Virus record (IMG/VR): IMGVR_UViG_2529292716_000011
DNA from: a virus
Lineage: Duplodnaviria; Heunggongvirae; Uroviricota; Caudoviricetes
DNA length: 48,128 bases
Direction: 5' to 3' (one strand)
The notes under the pieces are model-generated. The model was not told the DNA's origin and searched no databases. It saw nothing but the letters and a program-made list of their open reading frames with translations. This document shows, piece by piece, positions 3,969 to 43,763 of this stretch (positions within the stretch are counted from its first letter, which is position 1; each line of letters opens with the position of its first letter). The position numbers and the translations under genes were made by a program.

Positions 3969-4114
3969 TCCGGACCGTACTTCTTTATCCAGGCATAAAG
4001 GCTGTGGGTAGTGATATCGAGACGTGTTGCAACGCTGGCAACAGAATAACCGCGATCAACAACCTGTTTGACTGCTTCAGTTTTAAACTCTTCGGGATAA
4101 CGCTTACCGCTCAT
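3969..4114 (-). pseudogene. IS3-family transposase OrfA, N-terminal fragment (truncated)
   Basis: HTH-type OrfA start (ATG at 4112-4114); similarity ends at KKYGPD, after which the frame reads the antisense of the intS 3' end. Confidence 0.6.
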
Positions 4115-4177
4115 GGGCACCTCTCTTTAAGCCATCTTAAATGACTCTGAGGTGTCTGTTAAACCCGTGGCGATTCA

Positions 4178-4630
4178 AAACTGCGTGTTACGTTCGCCCT
4201 GGACTGTTGCGATCGTGAAGCCATAGACTGGGCCGCAAGCACGGGAGGTTACGATAAAGCGACAGTGCAGGATGTCATGTTAGGAGCGATAGAAAAACGC
4301 TTTGGCGATAAAGTACCGGAACAGTCCATCCAGTGGCTGACAGATAACGGTTCAGCGTATAGAGCGCATGAAACACGGCAGTTCGCCAGAGAGTTGAATC
4401 TGGAGCCCTGCACAACGGCAATCAGCAGTCCTCAGAGTAATGGAATGGCAGAAAGGTTCGTGAAAACGATGAAGGAAGACTACATCGCGTTCATGCCGAA
4501 ACCGAATGTAAGAACGGCATTGCATAATCTTGCAGTGGCGATCGAACATTACAATGAAAACCATCCGCACAGTGCGCTGGGTTATCGCTCTCCGCGAGAA
4601 TATCGACGTCAGCGGGTAACGTTAACTTAA
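4178..4630 (+). pseudogene. IS2-group transposase OrfB, C-terminal fragment (no start codon)
   Basis: In-frame similarity to IS2 InsD begins near 4178 ([14 protein letters not shown]) upstream of the first Met at 4265; DDE-domain C-terminus present. Confidence 0.65.
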
Positions 4631-4671: not shown

Positions 4672-5414
4672 TCAGATTCCCTGGTGAGTAAGAATTTTAC
4701 TTTCTGAACTCCTCTGAGAGTATTGACTTGGAGAAACACCAAAATAACGTCTAAATACATAAGTAAAGTATGAGACACTGGCATAACCACAGACCTTAGC
4801 TACTTTACTAATAGGATAACAACGAGTGCTGAGTAAATATTCAGCCATTTGCATCCTCTCATCAAGTATGATCTTACTGAATGATACCCCCTCTTCTTTC
4901 AATTTCATCTTTAGTAAACTTTCGCTGAGATATAATCTTGATGATATATCCTTAAGACGCCATGGTGCAGATAAATCCGTATGAATAATCGTTTTAACTT
5001 TAGCCCTGTGCTTTTCAAACATCCAAACAGAAATACTCCAAATTGTTTTTCAGAAGAAAATGCAGAGAGACATGTAAAAGCAATAGACTCATCAAAAATT
5101 TCTATGTATTCAGCACAGTGATTAGCCCAACTAATTAATCCTTTAATTAAACTGAAGTCAGCAAAGTTTATTTTTAAATAAGATAGATATTCCCTACAAT
5201 CAGAAATATCCCTTAAGTTATTAGCTTTCAAATAGCGACTAATAAACTCAGCGCCAAAATCCGCCACTATCACTCTTTCAGGATATGTCAGGAAAAAATC
5301 TCTAGAGCTAGAGTCGACAAGTACAGATGAACCTCTCTCCAGAAACACACTCTCTTTTCCGAAATAAACATCAAAGGACTCCAAAATCAATATAACTGAA
5401 CATGTAGTTGCCAT
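4672..5414 (-). pseudogene. AraC/XylS-family regulator (AppY/YdeO/GadX-like), frameshifted
   Basis: N-terminal ORF 4911-5423 and C-terminal HTH ORF 4672-5022 overlap in different frames; C-terminus matches the AraC HTH signature (WRLKDISSRLYLSESLLKMKLKEEG...CGYASVSYF); AT-rich. Confidence 0.6.
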
Positions 5415-31345: not shown

Positions 31346-32251
31346 CTATATTTCCAGACATCTGTTATCACTTAACCCATTACAAGCCCGCTGCCGCAGA
31401 TATTCCCGTGGCGAGCGATAACCCAGCGCACTATGCGGATGCCATTCGTTATAATGCTCGAACGCCTCTGCAAGGTTCTTTGCTGCCGTTAACCCGTCTG
31501 GTTTGGGCATGATACTGATGTAGTCACGCTTTATCGTTTTCACGAAGCTCTCTGCTATTCCGTTACTCTCCGGACTCCGCACCGCCGTGTTCTTCGGTTC
31601 AAGTCCCAACATCCGGGCGAACTGGCGTGTTTCATTAGCCCGGTAGCATGAACCATTATCCGTCAGCCACTCCACTGGAGACGACGGAAGATCGTTGCCG
31701 AAGCGGCGTTCCACCGCTCCCAGCATGACGTCCTGTACTGTTTCACTGTTGAAGCCGCCGGTAGTCACCGCCCAGTGCAGTGCCTCACGATCACAGCAGT
31801 CCAGCGCGAACGTGACACGCAGTCTCTCTCCGTTATCACAGCAGAACTCGAACCCGTCAGAGCACCATCGCTGATTGCTTTCTTTCACGGCCACTCTGCC
31901 TGTATGTGCCCGTTTCGATGGCGGTACAGCAGGTTTTCGCTCAAGCAACAGCGCATTCTGGCGCATGATCCGGTAAACACGTTTGGCATTGATCGCAGGC
32001 ATACCATCAAGTTCTGCCTGTCTGCGAAGCAGCGCCCATACCCGACGATAACCATACGTGGGCAGCTCTCCGATAACATGGTGTATACGGAGAAGCACAT
32101 CCGTATCATCAGTGTGACGACTGCGGCGGCCATCCATCCAGTCATCGGTTCGTCTGAGAATGACGTGCAACTGCGCACGCGACACCCGGAGACAACGGCT
32201 GACTAAGCTTACTCCCCATCCCCGGGCAATAAGGGCGCGTGCGCTATCCAC
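31346..32251 (-). CDS. insD: IS2 transposase InsD
   Basis: 301 aa; DDE transposase. Confidence 0.92.
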
Positions 32252-32574
32252 TTTTTTGCCCGTCCATATTCAACGGCTTCTTTGAGGAGTTCATTTTCCA
32301 TCGTTTTCTTGCCGAGCAGGCGCTGGAGTTCTTTAATCTGCTTCATGGCGGCAGCAAGTTCAGAGGCAGGAACAACCTGTTCTCCGGCGGCCACAGCAGT
32401 AAGACTTCCTTCCTGGTATTGCTTACGCCAGAGAAATAACTGGCTGGCTGCTACACCATGTTGCCGGGCAACGAGGGAGACCGTCATCCCCGGTTCAAAG
32501 CTCTGCTGAACAATTGCGATCTTTTCCTGTGTGGTACGCCGTCTGCGTTTCTCCGGCCCTAAGACATCAATCAT
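32209..32574 (-). CDS. insC: IS2 InsC
   Basis: Start at [13 protein letters not shown] (121 aa). Confidence 0.9.
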
Positions 32575-33090
32575 CTGTACTCCAATGACTAGTCTAAAAA
32601 CTAGTATTAAGACTATCACTTATTTAAGTGATACTGGTTGTCTGGAGATTCAGGGGGCCAGTCTAACGATACAGCGCATGATGTGTCAGGCTTGAATACC
32701 TTTATCCTTTAAAAGGGATATCAGTTAAGTTATCCCGTGTAGGGTATAAGCCATTATCAAAGCCACTCTGTAGGGAATGGCTTTTGTGATGGCATCACTT
32801 ACTCTTTACGCTGCTATCCCACTCATCCCGGAATTTTGATGGGTTATTGAAACCTTCTGCTGACATAACAACTCCTTCAATGTTTGGCTGAAATTGGGAT
32901 GTCTTTCCATCAGTCCGCCACCACAAAGAATCTTTTTTGCCATAAGGCAGGAGGTTCATCTTTCAGTGGCTGCCGGTGTTATTTCCCCACTTACTGGCTT
33001 GGGTTGTTTCGTGGTACTGCCGTTAACTGGTGGCCCAGAATAAATTCCGGTTTCATTATCAAGCCCACCCGTAAATGGGCTTTGTAATGG

Positions 33091-33348
33091 CTACTTCGCT
33101 TTTGCTTCCGCTCGCTTACGCCGGCGCTCTTCTTTCCTCTCGGCTTTTGCCATGTCCATGAATGCCTGCATGATCGAGTTCCGCATCATGTAGCTAACAA
33201 AGTGATGATTGACACAGCCGTTGAGGCGCAGCTGCTCGCCAAACTCATCCACCGAGGCCAATGCTTCCATCATGCCCTTCTCGCCTTTCATGAACTCTGA
33301 GAAGTCGCGCCCCGCTCTGGAGGCGCATTCAATAACATGATCACTCAT
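33091..33348 (-). CDS. hypothetical protein (85 aa) translationally coupled to the KilA-N gene
   Basis: Start overlaps the upstream stop (ATGA); charged Lys/Arg/Glu-rich C-terminus; no family recognised. Confidence 0.5.
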   Translation of the reverse strand: MSDHVIECASRAGRDFSEFMKGEKGMMEALASVDEFGEQLRLNGCVNHHFVSYMMRNSIMQAFMDMAKAERKEERRRKRAEAKAK

Positions 33349-33842
33349 CCCGGAAGCCCGGGGATCGTAATCTGCAGCTGGTTAGCCAGGGAGTTAATCT
33401 CAGCGACCAACACTGGCTTCGTATAGCGCCATGCTGCCAGCCCTTGTCCGCAGAAGCTCGCCATATCTTTCTTCTGGTCAAATTCATGACATTTCATGTT
33501 GAGCTGCGCACTTAAGCTGTTGCGATGCTGAAGTTCTCCGGTGAAGTAGTCATCGAGGACTTTATAGGCCGCGTACTTGAACCCGGGGTTTAACCAAGCC
33601 GCATAATCGTAAGCAACAAACTTCCCGCCATATGTTCCACCGTGTACACCGCGCTCAGTAAAAACCACAGATTCGTGGTTTTTCTCCAGCTCGGCTAAGA
33701 ACTCTTTGGTCTGCTTGTTTCGCAGGTAGTGGTAAGGCGATTCAGATTCACTTTTACCACTGGCTTTCCACATATCAGTGAGGCAGATCATGCCATCTTC
33801 ACCGATACGAATTGGTTGATTGAAGAGGGTTAATGATTTCAT
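33345..33842 (-). CDS. KilA-N domain protein
   Basis: 165 aa; N-terminal motif (ICLTDMWKASGK...YHYLRNKQTKEFLAEL) typical of KilA-N/Bro-N. Confidence 0.65.
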   Translation of the reverse strand: MKSLTLFNQPIRIGEDGMICLTDMWKASGKSESESPYHYLRNKQTKEFLAELEKNHESVVFTERGVHGGTYGGKFVAYDYAAWLNPGFKYAAYKVLDDYFTGELQHRNSLSAQLNMKCHEFDQKKDMASFCGQGLAAWRYTKPVLVAEINSLANQLQITIPGLPG

Positions 33843-34043
33843 AGCGTGTACCTACTCTTTGAAATGAACCTTTGCCGCACAGGAAACCAGCCCACCGAGG
33901 CTCGCCAGCACTAACTGGTATCCTCAAAGGCCCATTCCAAAGGGGCAGGTTCGGTGTAAAAAACATGCGTTGCGGTACGCATTTATTGCAAAAAGCCCCG
34001 CATCGCGAGGCTCATTAAATGGACTTTGTGATTTGCAAAAAAA

Positions 34044-34502
34044 TTATTTCAGGCATTGCGTCCTGATGTATTCCTGCAGGTAGTTAACCTGCGCGGTTAT
34101 CTTGTCGATTCCACTTCGGAGACGGTAATAATTGAGTTCAGCATCTGCTGTAAGTCCTGGGCTTTCTCCATCGCCCATGCCGCTGGCTCCGGTCGTTGAC
34201 TTTGCACAGGTGGCGGCGACTTGCAGGCGCTTACGCCCAGCAGAAACATCAGCACGGAGACTTTCGATAGTCGCGTTAGCATCAGCAAGCTCCTTTATGT
34301 ATCTTGCGTCGAGTTCTGCTACATCACGTTGACGCTTCCGCATGTCAGCGATGGTGGCGTTCGCCTTCTCCAGTTCACTGGCCTTGTTATCGCGCTGCTC
34401 TTTGTAGGCGATTGCGTTATCACGGTAATGATTAACAGCCAATGACAGGCAGACGATGATGCAGATAACCAGAGCGGAGATAATCGCGGTTACTCTGCTC
34501 AT
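34044..34502 (-). CDS. Rz: i-spanin Rz
   Basis: Start at [17 protein letters not shown] (ORF track start 34514); start overlaps the R stop. Confidence 0.88.
34097..34288 (-). CDS. Rz1: o-spanin Rz1 (lipoprotein embedded in Rz in another frame)
   Basis: 63 aa; signal with lipobox LGVSAC; proline-rich mature region. Confidence 0.8.
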
Positions 34503-34996
34503 TGTTTCCCCCACAAACAGACTTCACGCTCAATCTCACGGCGAGTCATCAGTCCTTTCCATTGATTACCGCCAGCGTATGTCCAGCGCCGTAGCTGATC
34601 ACATGCGCCTTTAATATCACCCTGGTTTATTTTGCGAAGAAGCGTCGATGTTCTGAAATTGCCAGCACCCACGTTGTAGACGAACGAGTAAAGAGCGCAG
34701 CGCGTTGTTTCCGGTATATCGACTTTGATGTACGGGTTAATTTGTCTGGCGACAGTGGCAAGGTCTTTATTCAGGAGGGCTTTGCACTCTGCTTCGGTAT
34801 ACGTTTTACCGGGAATGATGTCTTTTCCTGTATGCCCGTAACATACAGTCCATACACCAACTATGTCTTTGTAAGGATTATGTCTCACACCTTCCAGACC
34901 ATCGTTACCACCTGGGCCAGTGATTAACACAGATGCTATAGCAATAGCCCCGCCACCAATAGCAGCAGCAACAGCTTTTCGTAATGATGGAGGCAT
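34499..34996 (-). CDS. R: SAR endolysin (phage-21-type lysozyme R)
   Basis: 165 aa; N-terminal signal-anchor-release segment ([19 protein letters not shown]) followed by a T4-lysozyme-like domain. Confidence 0.9.
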
Positions 34997-35211
34997 TATC
35001 CACCTCTCGCAGCCTTGCGCTTATCTTCTTTAATCTTGAAATAAAGGTTTGTCAGGTACGTCAGCAGGCCAAATACCAGGCTACCCAGCACTCCAATTGC
35101 CGCCCACTGTGAGGGCGTGACTTTATCTAGCAGCTGTAAAAACCAGTACCCGGCACTACCTGCTGAGGTGCCATAGGCGACACCCGTTGTTAACTTATCC
35201 ATGGATTTCAT
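34996..35211 (-). CDS. S: pinholin S (phage-21 S-like)
   Basis: 71 aa; two TM segments and a charged C-terminus. Confidence 0.9.
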
Positions 35212-35401
35212 AACCCCACCTCGCAGACAAAGCGGGTGTAAATTGAGGGAATACTACGAAACGTAACAGACTCGGAGTCAGTGAATAACTCAGGTATTGG
35301 GTTATCAGCTAATATCGAGACTCAAAAAATGGAAAAACCCGCTCGACGGCGGGTTTAAGCTGTGTGACGAAGTAACCACTCTTAACAGCATAACCAATTT
35401 T

Positions 35402-36168
35402 GGTGATGCTGCCAACTTACTGATTTAGTGTATGATGGTGTTTTTGAGGTGCTCCAGTGGCTTCTGTTTCTATCAGCTGTCCCTCCTGTTCAGCTACTGA
35501 CGGGGTGGTGCGTAACGGCAAAAGCACTGCCGGACATCAGCGCTATCTCTGCTCTCACTGCCGTAAAACATGGCAACTGCAGTTCACTTACACCGCTTCT
35601 CAACCCGGTACGCACCAGAAAATCATTGATATGGCCATGAATGGCGTTGGATGCCGGGCAACAGCGCGCATTATGGGCGTTGGCCTCAACACGATTTTAC
35701 GTCACTTAAAAACTCAGGCCGCAGTCGGTAACCTCGCGCATACAGCCGGGCAGTGACGTCATCGTCTGCGCGGAAATGGACGAACAGTGGGGCTATGTCG
35801 GGGCTAAATCGCGCCAGCGCTGGCTGTTTTACGCGTATGACAGTCTCCGGAAGACGGTTGTTGCGCACGTATTCGGTGAACGCACTATGGCGACGCTGGG
35901 GCGTCTTATGAGCCTGCTGTCACCCTTTGACGTGGTGATATGGATGACGGATGGCTGGCCGCTGTATGAATCCCGCCTGAAGGGAAAGCTGCACGTAATC
36001 AGCAAGCGATATACGCAGCGAATTGAGCGGCATAACCTGAATCTGAGGCAGCACCTGGCACGGCTGGGACGGAAGTCGCTGTCGTTCTCAAAATCGGTGG
36101 AGCTGCATGACAAAGTCATCGGGCATTATCTGAACATAAAACACTATCAATAAGTTGGAGTCATTACC
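35402..36168 (+). mobile_element. IS1 copy 2 (767 bp) with 8-bp target duplication CCAATTTT; one A missing from the frameshift A-run
   Basis: Terminal repeats present; CCAATTTT at 35394-35401 and 36169-36176; slippery run is A5C where copies 1, 3 and 4 have A6C, so insA reads on to 99 aa. Confidence 0.93.
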
Positions 36169-43259: not shown

Positions 43260-43763
43260 ATGCCGGGCAACTGCACGCATTATGGGCGTTGGCCTCAACA
43301 CGATTTTACGTCACTTAAAAAACTCAGGCCGCAGTCGGTAACCTCGCGCATACAGCCGGGCAGTGACGTCATCGTCTGCGCGGAAATGGACGAACAGTGG
43401 GGCTATGTCGGGGCTAAATCGCGCCAGCGCTGGCTGTTTTACGCGTATGACAGTCTCCGGAAGACGGTTGTTGCGCACGTATTCGGTGAACGCACTATGG
43501 CGACGCTGGGGCGTCTTATGAGCCTGCTGTCACCCTTTGACGTGGTGATATGGATGACGGATGGCTGGCCGCTGTATGAATCCCGCCTGAAGGGAAAGCT
43601 GCACGTAATCAGCAAGCGATATACGCAGCGAATTGAGCGGCATAACCTGAATCTGAGGCAGCACCTGACACGGCTGGGACGGAAGTCGCTGTCGTTCTCA
43701 AAATCGGTGGAGCTGCATGACAAAGTCATCGGGCATTATCTGAACATAAAACACTATCAATAA
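43260..43763 (+). CDS. insB: IS1 InsB frame of interrupted copy 3
   Basis: 167 aa, one substitution relative to copy 1. Confidence 0.85.

Follow-up and report, generated by a model that had tools for sequence, protein, structure and literature searches.

A KilA-N gene and its small overlapping neighbour behind a conserved leader hairpin in the late region of a lambda-like prophage

The virus record IMGVR_UViG_2529292716_000011 (Caudoviricetes), a stretch of 48,128 nucleotides (nt) analysed here in full and called the window, carries two genes on its minus strand just after the lysis genes Rz and Rz1. The first encodes a protein of 165 amino acids (aa) with KilA-N and ORF11CD3 domains, and the second encodes an 85-aa protein. 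As read from the sequence, the unit consists of a terminator, a short box, a hairpin predicted to pair with the Shine-Dalgarno (SD) region, a Bro-type gene and the 85-aa gene. The two open reading frames (ORFs) overlap by 4 nt, the ATGA at 33345-33348, which holds the stop codon of the 165-aa ORF and the start codon of the 85-aa ORF. We hold with moderate confidence, and largely by analogy, that this cassette may be a KilA-N version of the rha locus found behind the lysis genes of phi80 and P22, and thus a translationally gated, non-essential regulator cassette. The original prediction, made from the letters of the window, had placed two minus-strand ORFs with an ATGA overlap after Rz/Rz1, which is exactly where they lie (Table 1).

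The stretch of about 190 nt that precedes the KilA-N gene is conserved along with the cassette wherever the cassette occurs. An intrinsic terminator comes first and forms the 5' boundary of the cassette. Every leader type has a GC-rich hairpin with a T-run at this point, with compensatory changes in a stem of varying sequence. The box that follows has a variant sequence in the window and, in most relatives, an invariant GCGC-N7-GCGC form (GCGCATCKCACGCGCA). Of 74 distinct leaders, 73-74 have the GCGC...GCGC pattern, and their loop is likewise conserved. The box is scored as terminator-like by a terminator scan and corresponds to helix 1 of R1, our covariance model of the leader. A long imperfect hairpin then leads up to the gene. 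The window leader has a minimum free energy (MFE) of -48.7 kcal/mol (z = -3.5), and three further sequence types fold into a similar long hairpin. In the MFE folds of the window's type and of two others, the 3' arm contains the SD region; the MFE fold of the HK022 type (L003/L004) has a different basal part and leaves most of the SD unpaired.

The helix is backed by covariation. In an alignment of 14 leaders made by MAFFT from sequence only, 83% of the cells pair, as against 32-53% with the partners slid, and compensatory changes occur in 12 of 29 pairs, as against 1-5. For the 74 distinct leaders, whose alignment was fitted to R1 so that the pair counts lean towards the structure, 92% of the cells pair, 20 of the 29 pairs have compensatory changes, and the compensatory cells number 260 compared with 11-45 when slid; these values were reached by none of 500 shuffles. 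On the sense strand, G-U pairs exceed A-C mismatches (86 vs 48). R1 has a single match in the window (33837-33994, minus strand, 95.1 bits), and, in each of the related loci searched that still have the region before the KilA-N gene, one match in that region. No Rfam 15 family (C4, isrK and isrJ included) reached its gathering score in the window region or in eight related loci. One faint match was to the rimP leader (20.1 bits vs 47). Another, to isrJ at 33992-34059 on the minus strand (14.5 bits vs 37, E 2.6), lies over the post-Rz terminator; isrJ of Gifsy-1 lies just after the Bro-type gene anrP, and the match in the window may be a mere resemblance between terminators. Taken together, the leader appears to be an SD-sequestering 5' structure with a conserved helix, and the terminator-box-hairpin arrangement, absent from Rfam 15 and from the literature searched, appears as a well-supported new RNA motif. 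A sigma-70 promoter in the box region was considered and found unsupported. The promoter scan called none on the coding strand, a weak -10-like hexamer is visible by eye in some leader types only, and compact leader variants, in which the box directly adjoins the terminator T-run, leave no room for a -35 element.

The leader is common to many accessory genes. A pattern scan of IMG/VR for its 3' half gave at least 120 stretches, and R1 confirms at least 83 leaders in at least 77 loci among the matches listed (31-146 bits). The cargos among these listed matches are Rha+ORF11CD3 (35), a 273-aa protein related to Phage_Tail_Tip (25), KilA-N (15), a glycosyltransferase-like protein (10, with a weak Glycos_transf_2 match below the cut-off), HNH_3 (6, three of them with AP2), P22_AR_N+ORF11CD3 (5), KilA-N+P63C (5), KilA-N+ORF11CD3 (3), Rha (2) and T5orf172 (1), with others making up the remainder. 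The leader also precedes a TerB-domain gene and, at 37 bits, the T5orf172-fusion gene P0134 on a contig of 33% GC. A BLASTN search with one leader matched 155 phage records, including 73 Shiga toxin (Stx) 2a phages; HK620 (upstream of hkbK), CUS-3, HK639 rha and phi80 rha were also matched.

The rha locus provides the closest functional comparison. The gene order in phi80 is Rz, terminator, leader and rha; R1 scores this leader at 130 bits, and it stands immediately upstream of rha as the window leader does of the KilA-N gene. The window cassette occupies the equal slot of the phi80 and P22 locus, after Rz/Rz1 and a terminator and in late-gene orientation. Both units are non-essential and lie in the late region, and many Rha genes behind the leader carry ORF11CD3, as does the window protein. 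Since the rha locus is the one occupied and the leader is shared, the window genes probably work like rha. The two nevertheless differ in their N-terminal domain, which is KilA-N and not Rha in the window, and phi80 Rha has no significant BLASTP similarity to the window protein. Another difference is that Rha+ORF11CD3 cassettes lack the 85-aa partner (0 of 35 among the matches listed). An identity with Rha by domain was rejected, as Pfam gives no Phage_pRha match in either of the window's cassette proteins. In the phi80 record, the annotation of rha reads 'DNA synthesis inhibition in IHF- hosts' (IHF, integration host factor). According to a passage of PMC4936722 that refers to Henthorn and Friedman (1995), lytic growth suffers from rha products when IHF, a regulator of rha, is missing, and growth inhibition in IHF-deficient hosts is known only for the rha of phi80 and P22. 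Because Rha products harm growth once IHF-dependent control fails, there would be a reason for tight gating of such a locus. The phi80 genome (L294, JX871397) has two leader copies between Rz and cos, at 2482-2634 and 4076-4213, and the second copy (67 bits) precedes PHI80_66. The annotated start of phi80 rha (record position 43739) falls inside the leader hairpin. It may be too early, because the ATG that aligns with all other cargo starts lies 36 nt downstream.

The cassette could work as follows. From the position of the cassette we infer that Q-antiterminated late transcription would read through the terminator into it; the scan showed no sigma-70-like promoter on the coding strand, and the T-run of compact variants adjoins the box. 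The leader would hold KilA-N translation low until the hairpin is opened or cut, and RNase III, a trans-acting RNA or a protein are candidates for this step. Ribosomes terminating at the ATGA would then re-initiate on the small gene. Only ribosomes coming straight from the KilA-N gene would make the small protein, and the two products would appear in a fixed ratio. The KilA-N protein and the three-helix small protein would jointly regulate DNA transactions, and an excess of the regulator would harm phage or host, by analogy with Rha and with antirepressor-type relatives. The SD duplex of the 85-aa gene itself amounts to only -2.5 kcal/mol, and the near absence of an SD fits translational coupling. 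The tight coupling that the original prediction had proposed for the small partner thus finds support both in the 4-nt overlap and in this weak initiation signal.

A census classified the gene ending at the small-gene start at 162 loci in which the small gene is intact, and it indicates how firmly the two kinds of gene are associated. KilA-N+ORF11CD3 precedes the small gene in 85 loci (with the 4-nt overlap in 81), KilA-N+P63C in 69 (with a 2-nt gap in 67) and Rha in 3 (with a 4-nt overlap). A Bro-network DNA-binding gene therefore precedes 157 of the 162 small genes, and five have no partner. The association spans three genome positions and three partner architectures. Two subtypes of the small protein can be told apart: subtype A occurs with ORF11CD3 in 83 loci and with P63C in 4, and subtype B with P63C in 65 and with ORF11CD3 in 2. 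Since both subtypes are found with both KilA-N architectures, any interaction would not be tied to the C-terminal domain of the partner. The census, together with fusions of distant relatives to T5orf172, points to the small protein as a module of the Bro/KilA-N/Rha/T5orf172 network that is undescribed in Pfam and NCBIfam and usually encoded by a separate, translationally coupled gene. This module and its rule of association are absent from Pfam, NCBIfam and the literature searched.

It is possible, though doubtful, that the 85-aa protein is instead an independent effector (for host takeover, anti-defence or antirepression) that shares with the preceding Bro-type gene only the leader and the flow of ribosomes. 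Small proteins 96% identical to each other follow partners with unrelated C-terminal domains, and four of the five partnerless loci keep an intact stand-alone small gene. In these four (L155, L157, L158 and L160, from Klebsiella-type phages in IMG/VR) an intact 83-aa gene without KilA-N lies between tail and tape-measure genes, at about 4829-5252. L155 and L157, the two that were searched with R1, have a degenerate leader copy of 37-42 bits directly upstream of it, and the L155 gene has a ratio of nonsynonymous to synonymous substitution (dN/dS) of 0.19 against the window. In the model of the protein, the best-conserved residues cluster in helix 1 and in the loop between helices 2 and 3, as would be expected of a binding surface. 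An independent role is harder to reconcile with a Bro-network gene in front of the small gene at nearly all loci of the census, in three positions and three architectures. Likewise, a distant relative fused to T5orf172 still lies beside a KilA-N+P63C gene, and the small gene never follows the non-Bro cargos of the shared leader among the matches listed.

The small protein matches PHROG 875, a family of unknown function, over its full length (E 1.3e-53, residues 1-85 on profile positions 1-85). No Pfam match above threshold and no NCBIfam match was found. It had been described as small, highly charged and of no recognisable family. The first part stands (16 K+R and 14 D+E among 85 residues), and the second is right for Pfam and NCBIfam and wrong for PHROG. 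Residues 1-60 form an acidic core with an isoelectric point (pI) of 5.4, and residues 61-85 a basic tail with a pI of 10.5. The AlphaFold2 model (predicted local distance difference test, pLDDT, 92.9) has helices at residues 3-20, 26-42 and 48-84. Fold searches with it gave no PDB or BFVD match at E <= 0.001, the top ones being designed helical bundles, and a profile search of PDB sequences with the family gave no match. A zinc site made of C8, C45, H48 and H49, nearly invariant in close homologues, was considered and rejected on the evidence of distant members. P0122 has S and P0132 has A in place of C8, and P0134 has lost both C45 and H48. An exhaustive profile search of 1.84 billion representative proteins gave only 21 matches, the T5orf172 fusions among them, so that the family is very narrow. 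A scan of one genome per species found five loci, four titled Enterobacterales and one on a 4-kb contig from a bin labelled Candidatus Nanosynbacter. Its host range is narrow.

The split pair had also been seen as a possible remnant, with the 85-aa ORF a detached C-terminal piece of a longer KilA-C/Ant-type gene and the pair a pseudogene. We consider the probability of this close to negligible. The 165-aa protein covers only positions 3-174 of the 273 positions of the PHROG 129 profile, and a few database proteins of the small family exceed 85 aa (P0001 with 123 aa, P0002 with 139 aa). These longer forms are single frameshift or read-through variants, however, and the approximately 137 protein clusters of the family are nearly all free-standing and 83-87 aa long. 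Against diverged homologues, dN/dS is 0.05-0.23 for the 85-aa gene and 0.00-0.17 in three comparisons for the KilA-N gene, with a fourth saturated at synonymous sites. Both ORFs thus appear to be true genes under purifying selection and not chance ORFs. No natural full-length fusion of KilA-N and the 85-aa protein occurs among the KilA-N homologues searched. The only true fusions place the 85-aa domain at the N-terminus of T5orf172 proteins and not at the C-terminus of KilA-N proteins. Two distant homologues, P0132 and P0134, have this arrangement, with the domain N-terminal to T5orf172/MUG113; P0132 has a KilA-N+P63C gene and a block of Arc/Arc/Bro-N as neighbours, and P0134 is flanked by lysis genes and terminase genes. 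The search for remote homologues and structures that the original prediction had suggested yielded no informative neighbour other than the T5orf172 fusions, and by these comparisons the 85-aa ORF is not a gene fragment.

The 165-aa protein contains KilA-N (PF04383) at residues 9-101 (57.6 bits, gathering cut-off 23.8), as had been predicted, and also ORF11CD3 (PF10549) at residues 109-161 (50.5 bits, cut-off 25), which the original prediction did not mention. It matches PHROG 129 and PHROG 10441. Its AlphaFold2 model (pLDDT 84.6) shows beta-hairpins and helices followed by helices at 86-130 and 132-156, with the ORF11CD3 region within this helical hairpin, so the protein is modelled as a DNA-binding head on a long helical hairpin. 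The top PDB neighbour, the APSES domain of Mbp1, is not significant (E 0.54, template modelling score 0.23-0.28). The KilA-N family is named after the host-killing KilA protein of phage P1. This name and the tight coupling of small genes, typical of toxin-antitoxin pairs, could suggest a kill/antidote system of a toxin-antitoxin or abortive-infection-like kind, in which a toxic KilA-N protein is neutralised by the small one. In PADLOC, the KilA-N protein weakly matches PDC-S22, a candidate defence protein (E 1.2e-8), along some 30 residues of its KilA-N domain. The match of the small protein is at chance level (QatB, E 0.022), and no system in PADLOC-DB is matched by both components. Many Bro genes behind the leader, both Rha+ORF11CD3 and other KilA-N genes, have no small partner, and the small gene persists without a KilA-N gene. 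Position and orientation fit late lytic expression, in which an antidote would be of no obvious use. We judge such a system highly unlikely.

The two window genes are members of KilA-N, ORF11CD3 and PHROG 875 and, by sequence, the same as hkbK/hkbL of HK620. The cassette is widespread. In GenBank, 233 phage records match at least part of the cassette region and 21 cover at least 80% of it, including Stx phages 1717 and 2851 (95.2% identity), ECP1 and Escherichia phage PhiR49_1. The last is the closest intact phage, with 99.4% identity over 92% of the query; HK620 covers 78% at 96.4% identity. The small protein is encoded in 57 GenBank phage records. The pairs of HK620, the two Stx phages, ECP1 and PhiR49_1 consist of the same genes in identical order, and their records give no functional annotation ('KilA-N domain-containing protein' and 'hypothetical protein'). 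PhiR49_1 has the order Q, porin, S, R, Rz, 'KilA-N-ORF11CD3', hypothetical, ybcV, Nu1, A. The slot after Rz holds the cassette in these phages, in HK022, in mEp234 and in others. A late split pair at this position had been called unusual, and an absence of conservation had been allowed for. The pair is in fact strongly conserved across lambdoid late regions and common, hence ordinary. It is contiguous in 80 IMG/VR loci, with a KilA-N protein 92-100% and a small protein 99-100% identical to those of the window, and in all 78 that keep the upstream sequence it lies directly after Rz.

The near-identity of the cassette stands against an Rz beside it that is 54-100% identical to the window's in these IMG/VR loci, which makes the cassette a conserved block independent of the lysis module. 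In the window, the block adjoins Rz on one side and faces the terminase end of the prophage on the other. The same pair is found inside the tail-gene cluster of Klebsiella phages, and a diverged member (P0122) sits in an Arc-Arc-Ant-Rha block. The small gene of HK97 is frameshifted (P0117). Lambda is presumably without the cassette and has bor in this slot. By these comparisons, the cassette travels as a block between phages and between genome positions, and it is a dispensable accessory unit in lambdoid phages and their enterobacterial relatives. Actinobacillus phage vB_Apl-pPE4 (L002, PP818812; 1-100 and 1857-2566) also has a KilA-N+ORF11CD3 gene, with 96% identity to that of Escherichia coli. 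Its leaders are of the enterobacterial type, the small gene is cut off after 22 codons, and a second leader copy precedes a TerB-domain gene. This report from a Pasteurellaceae host points to recent transfer or a mislabelled host.

Mobility of this kind might mean that the cassette is a selfish mobile unit, with the leader as a recombination linker for cargo swaps and with nuclease-related folds (KilA-N, T5orf172 and HNH) serving mobility. The boundaries are mosaic, with cassettes 96-100% identical in phages whose flanking Rz genes share only 54-58%, and three genome positions are occupied. One leader precedes many cargos, among them HNH_3(+AP2) endonuclease genes. These genes were seen behind the shared leader in L208, L219 and L009 (from IMG/VR and Scandinavium), as if the cassette had been invaded in the manner of a homing endonuclease. 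About 560 nt separate the leader of L009 from the KilA-N gene downstream, and the intervening sequence encodes KHIGYFDDFREAVKARKAAEMQLQYH, a C-terminal motif of the HNH_3+AP2 cargo cluster. According to PMC10111431, domain swapping and a resemblance to homing endonucleases are features of Bro-network proteins. The leader itself argues the other way, because compensatory changes that keep the hairpin while its sequence drifts imply selection on structure and not homology alone. The distance from the start codon at which the hairpin meets the SD is constant (the HK022-type MFE fold excepted), the excess of G-U pairs over A-C mismatches is on the sense strand, and no nuclease catalytic motif was identified by Pfam in the window's two proteins. 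A purely selfish unit is therefore unlikely.

Other known systems resemble the cassette in part. The Bro/KilA-N/Ant/T5orf172 proteins reportedly form a domain-shuffling network, as described by Iyer, Koonin and Aravind in 2002. KilA-N and ORF11CD3 are both listed members of what PMC10111431 names the 'Bro network', and partner domains swap within it (ORF11CD3, P63C and Rha, with T5orf172 in fusions). The ten Pfam families that this list comprises do not, by contrast, include the 85-aa domain, which in the window is encoded by a separate, translationally coupled gene and is not fused. A P22-type Ant identity was rejected: no P22_AR_N, P22_AR_C or ANT (KilA-C) domain was found by Pfam in either cassette protein, and the immI-type Arc/Mnt setting is absent at the window cassette. 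RNA-gated antirepressor modules include c4-icd-ant of P1 and P7 and sar-ant of P22. The IsrK-orf45-anrP module of Gifsy-1 combines RNA gating with ATGA coupling, and AnrP induces its prophage (PMC4825925). The window cassette is similar in having a Bro/Ant-type prophage gene behind a structured leader, which would block translation, and an ATGA overlap. It differs in that Gifsy-1 couples a small upstream ORF to anrP downstream, whereas the window has the large gene first, and the window leader has no Rfam isrK or C4 match. The cassette also resembles lambdoid morons, said to have been described by Juhala and colleagues in 2000, as an extra unit that is present or absent among relatives, is bounded by hairpins or terminators and occurs at several genome positions. 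Unlike in morons, no sigma-70-type promoter was found on the coding strand. The hairpin downstream of the cassette has no T-run.

Several points weigh against a jointly acting, translationally gated, rha-like cassette. Late Q-dependent transcription is deduced from position, and the cassette may have its own promoter. The literature searched contained no experiment, expression data or functional study of the cassette, and no natural fusion of the two proteins is available as evidence of interaction. Almost identical small proteins (96%) are paired with unrelated C-termini, ORF11CD3 in some loci and P63C in others, and with KilA-N domains that have diverged, which speaks against an interface under tight co-evolution. 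The stand-alone small genes, the Rha+ORF11CD3 cassettes that do without a small gene behind the same leader, and the lean of the 74-leader pair counts belong on the same side.

A broader reading, which we advance tentatively, would make the terminator-box-hairpin leader a new class of cis-regulatory RNA that gates accessory genes, and the 85-aa protein a new effector module of the Bro network acting with KilA-N. The gated genes would be Rha, KilA-N, Ant-N, T5orf172 and others, including those in Stx2a phages. The signals could be RNase III, IHF, a small RNA of phage or host, or a protein that binds the GCGC-N7-GCGC box, and the effector could act in prophage cross-induction, replication control or phage-satellite conflict. 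The presence of the leader at phi80 rha, at HK620 hkbK, in the 73 Stx2a-phage records and at many accessory genes suggests that those of the late region share a post-transcriptional switch. It may also offer a link to the old observation that rha has to be restrained in an IHF-dependent way. If the switch responds to a signal, it would be relevant to prophage induction and to the biology of Stx phages. Members of the Bro, KilA-N and Rha groups recur in temperate phages, satellites and Shiga-toxin phages. The 85-aa gene and its Bro-type partner form a defined two-protein unit, almost always translationally coupled, in medically relevant phages.

Table 1. Positions of the cassette, its leader and neighbouring features in the window
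Feature	Position	Strand	Remarks
85-aa partner gene (PHROG 875)	33091-33348	minus	three-helix model, acidic core, basic end of the C-terminal helix
KilA-N+ORF11CD3 gene	33345-33842	minus	165 aa; Bro-network DNA-binding-type protein with a C-terminal helical hairpin
Leader hairpin, long and imperfect	33850-33950	minus	~100 nt; 3' arm holds the Shine-Dalgarno region AAAGAGTAGG, 33851-33860
Box element	33965-33982	minus	window variant ATGCGT-ACCGCA-ACGCAT then T6
Intrinsic terminator after Rz/Rz1	33990-34011	minus	GCCTCGC-GAT-GCGGGGC then TTTTT; read from the sequence
Rz	34044-34514	minus	nearest lysis gene upstream of the cassette
Rz1	34097-34288	minus	embedded in Rz
Lysozyme	34499-34996	minus	upstream of the cassette
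Holin	34996-35211	minus	upstream of the cassette
IS2 (InsC/InsD-type ORFs)	~31346-32619	minus	between the cassette and the DUF1398/ybcV gene
IS1 (InsA/InsB-type ORFs)	~35457-36153	plus	between the holin and the OmpC-like porin gene
Hairpin AAGCCCA-N8-TGGGCTT	33061-33082		9 nt past the stop codon; no T-run on the minus strand

The flanking insertion sequences (IS) IS2 and IS1 are found only in the window and not in HK620, the Stx phages, ECP1 or PhiR49_1, and the IS-free PhiR49_1 shows the original gene order at both sites. These insertions and other IS-like ORFs suggest a decaying lambda-like prophage, possibly one in Shigella, as partial proteins 100% identical to those of the window are labelled Shigella sonnei. 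The hairpin at 33061-33082 was not called by the terminator scan. The genes next after the cassette in PhiR49_1 lie on the opposite strand, and this hairpin probably marks a 3' boundary that faced convergent genes before IS2 was inserted. In L068 (7105-7894) a second, shorter leader copy of 60.6 bits lies downstream of the cassette. It is followed by a 53-codon ORF and then, in another frame, by a 182-aa ORF; their resemblance to the 273-aa Phage_Tail_Tip-related cargo indicates that they are probably a frameshifted copy of it. Just upstream of the window's holin, at 35329-35420 on the minus strand, an Rfam Trp_leader match below threshold (28.8 bits vs 41) spans a strong hairpin that resembles a terminator, AAACCCGCC...GGCGGGTTT with a T-run behind it. 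This hairpin is probably a tR'-type terminator of the late operon and not a trp leader.

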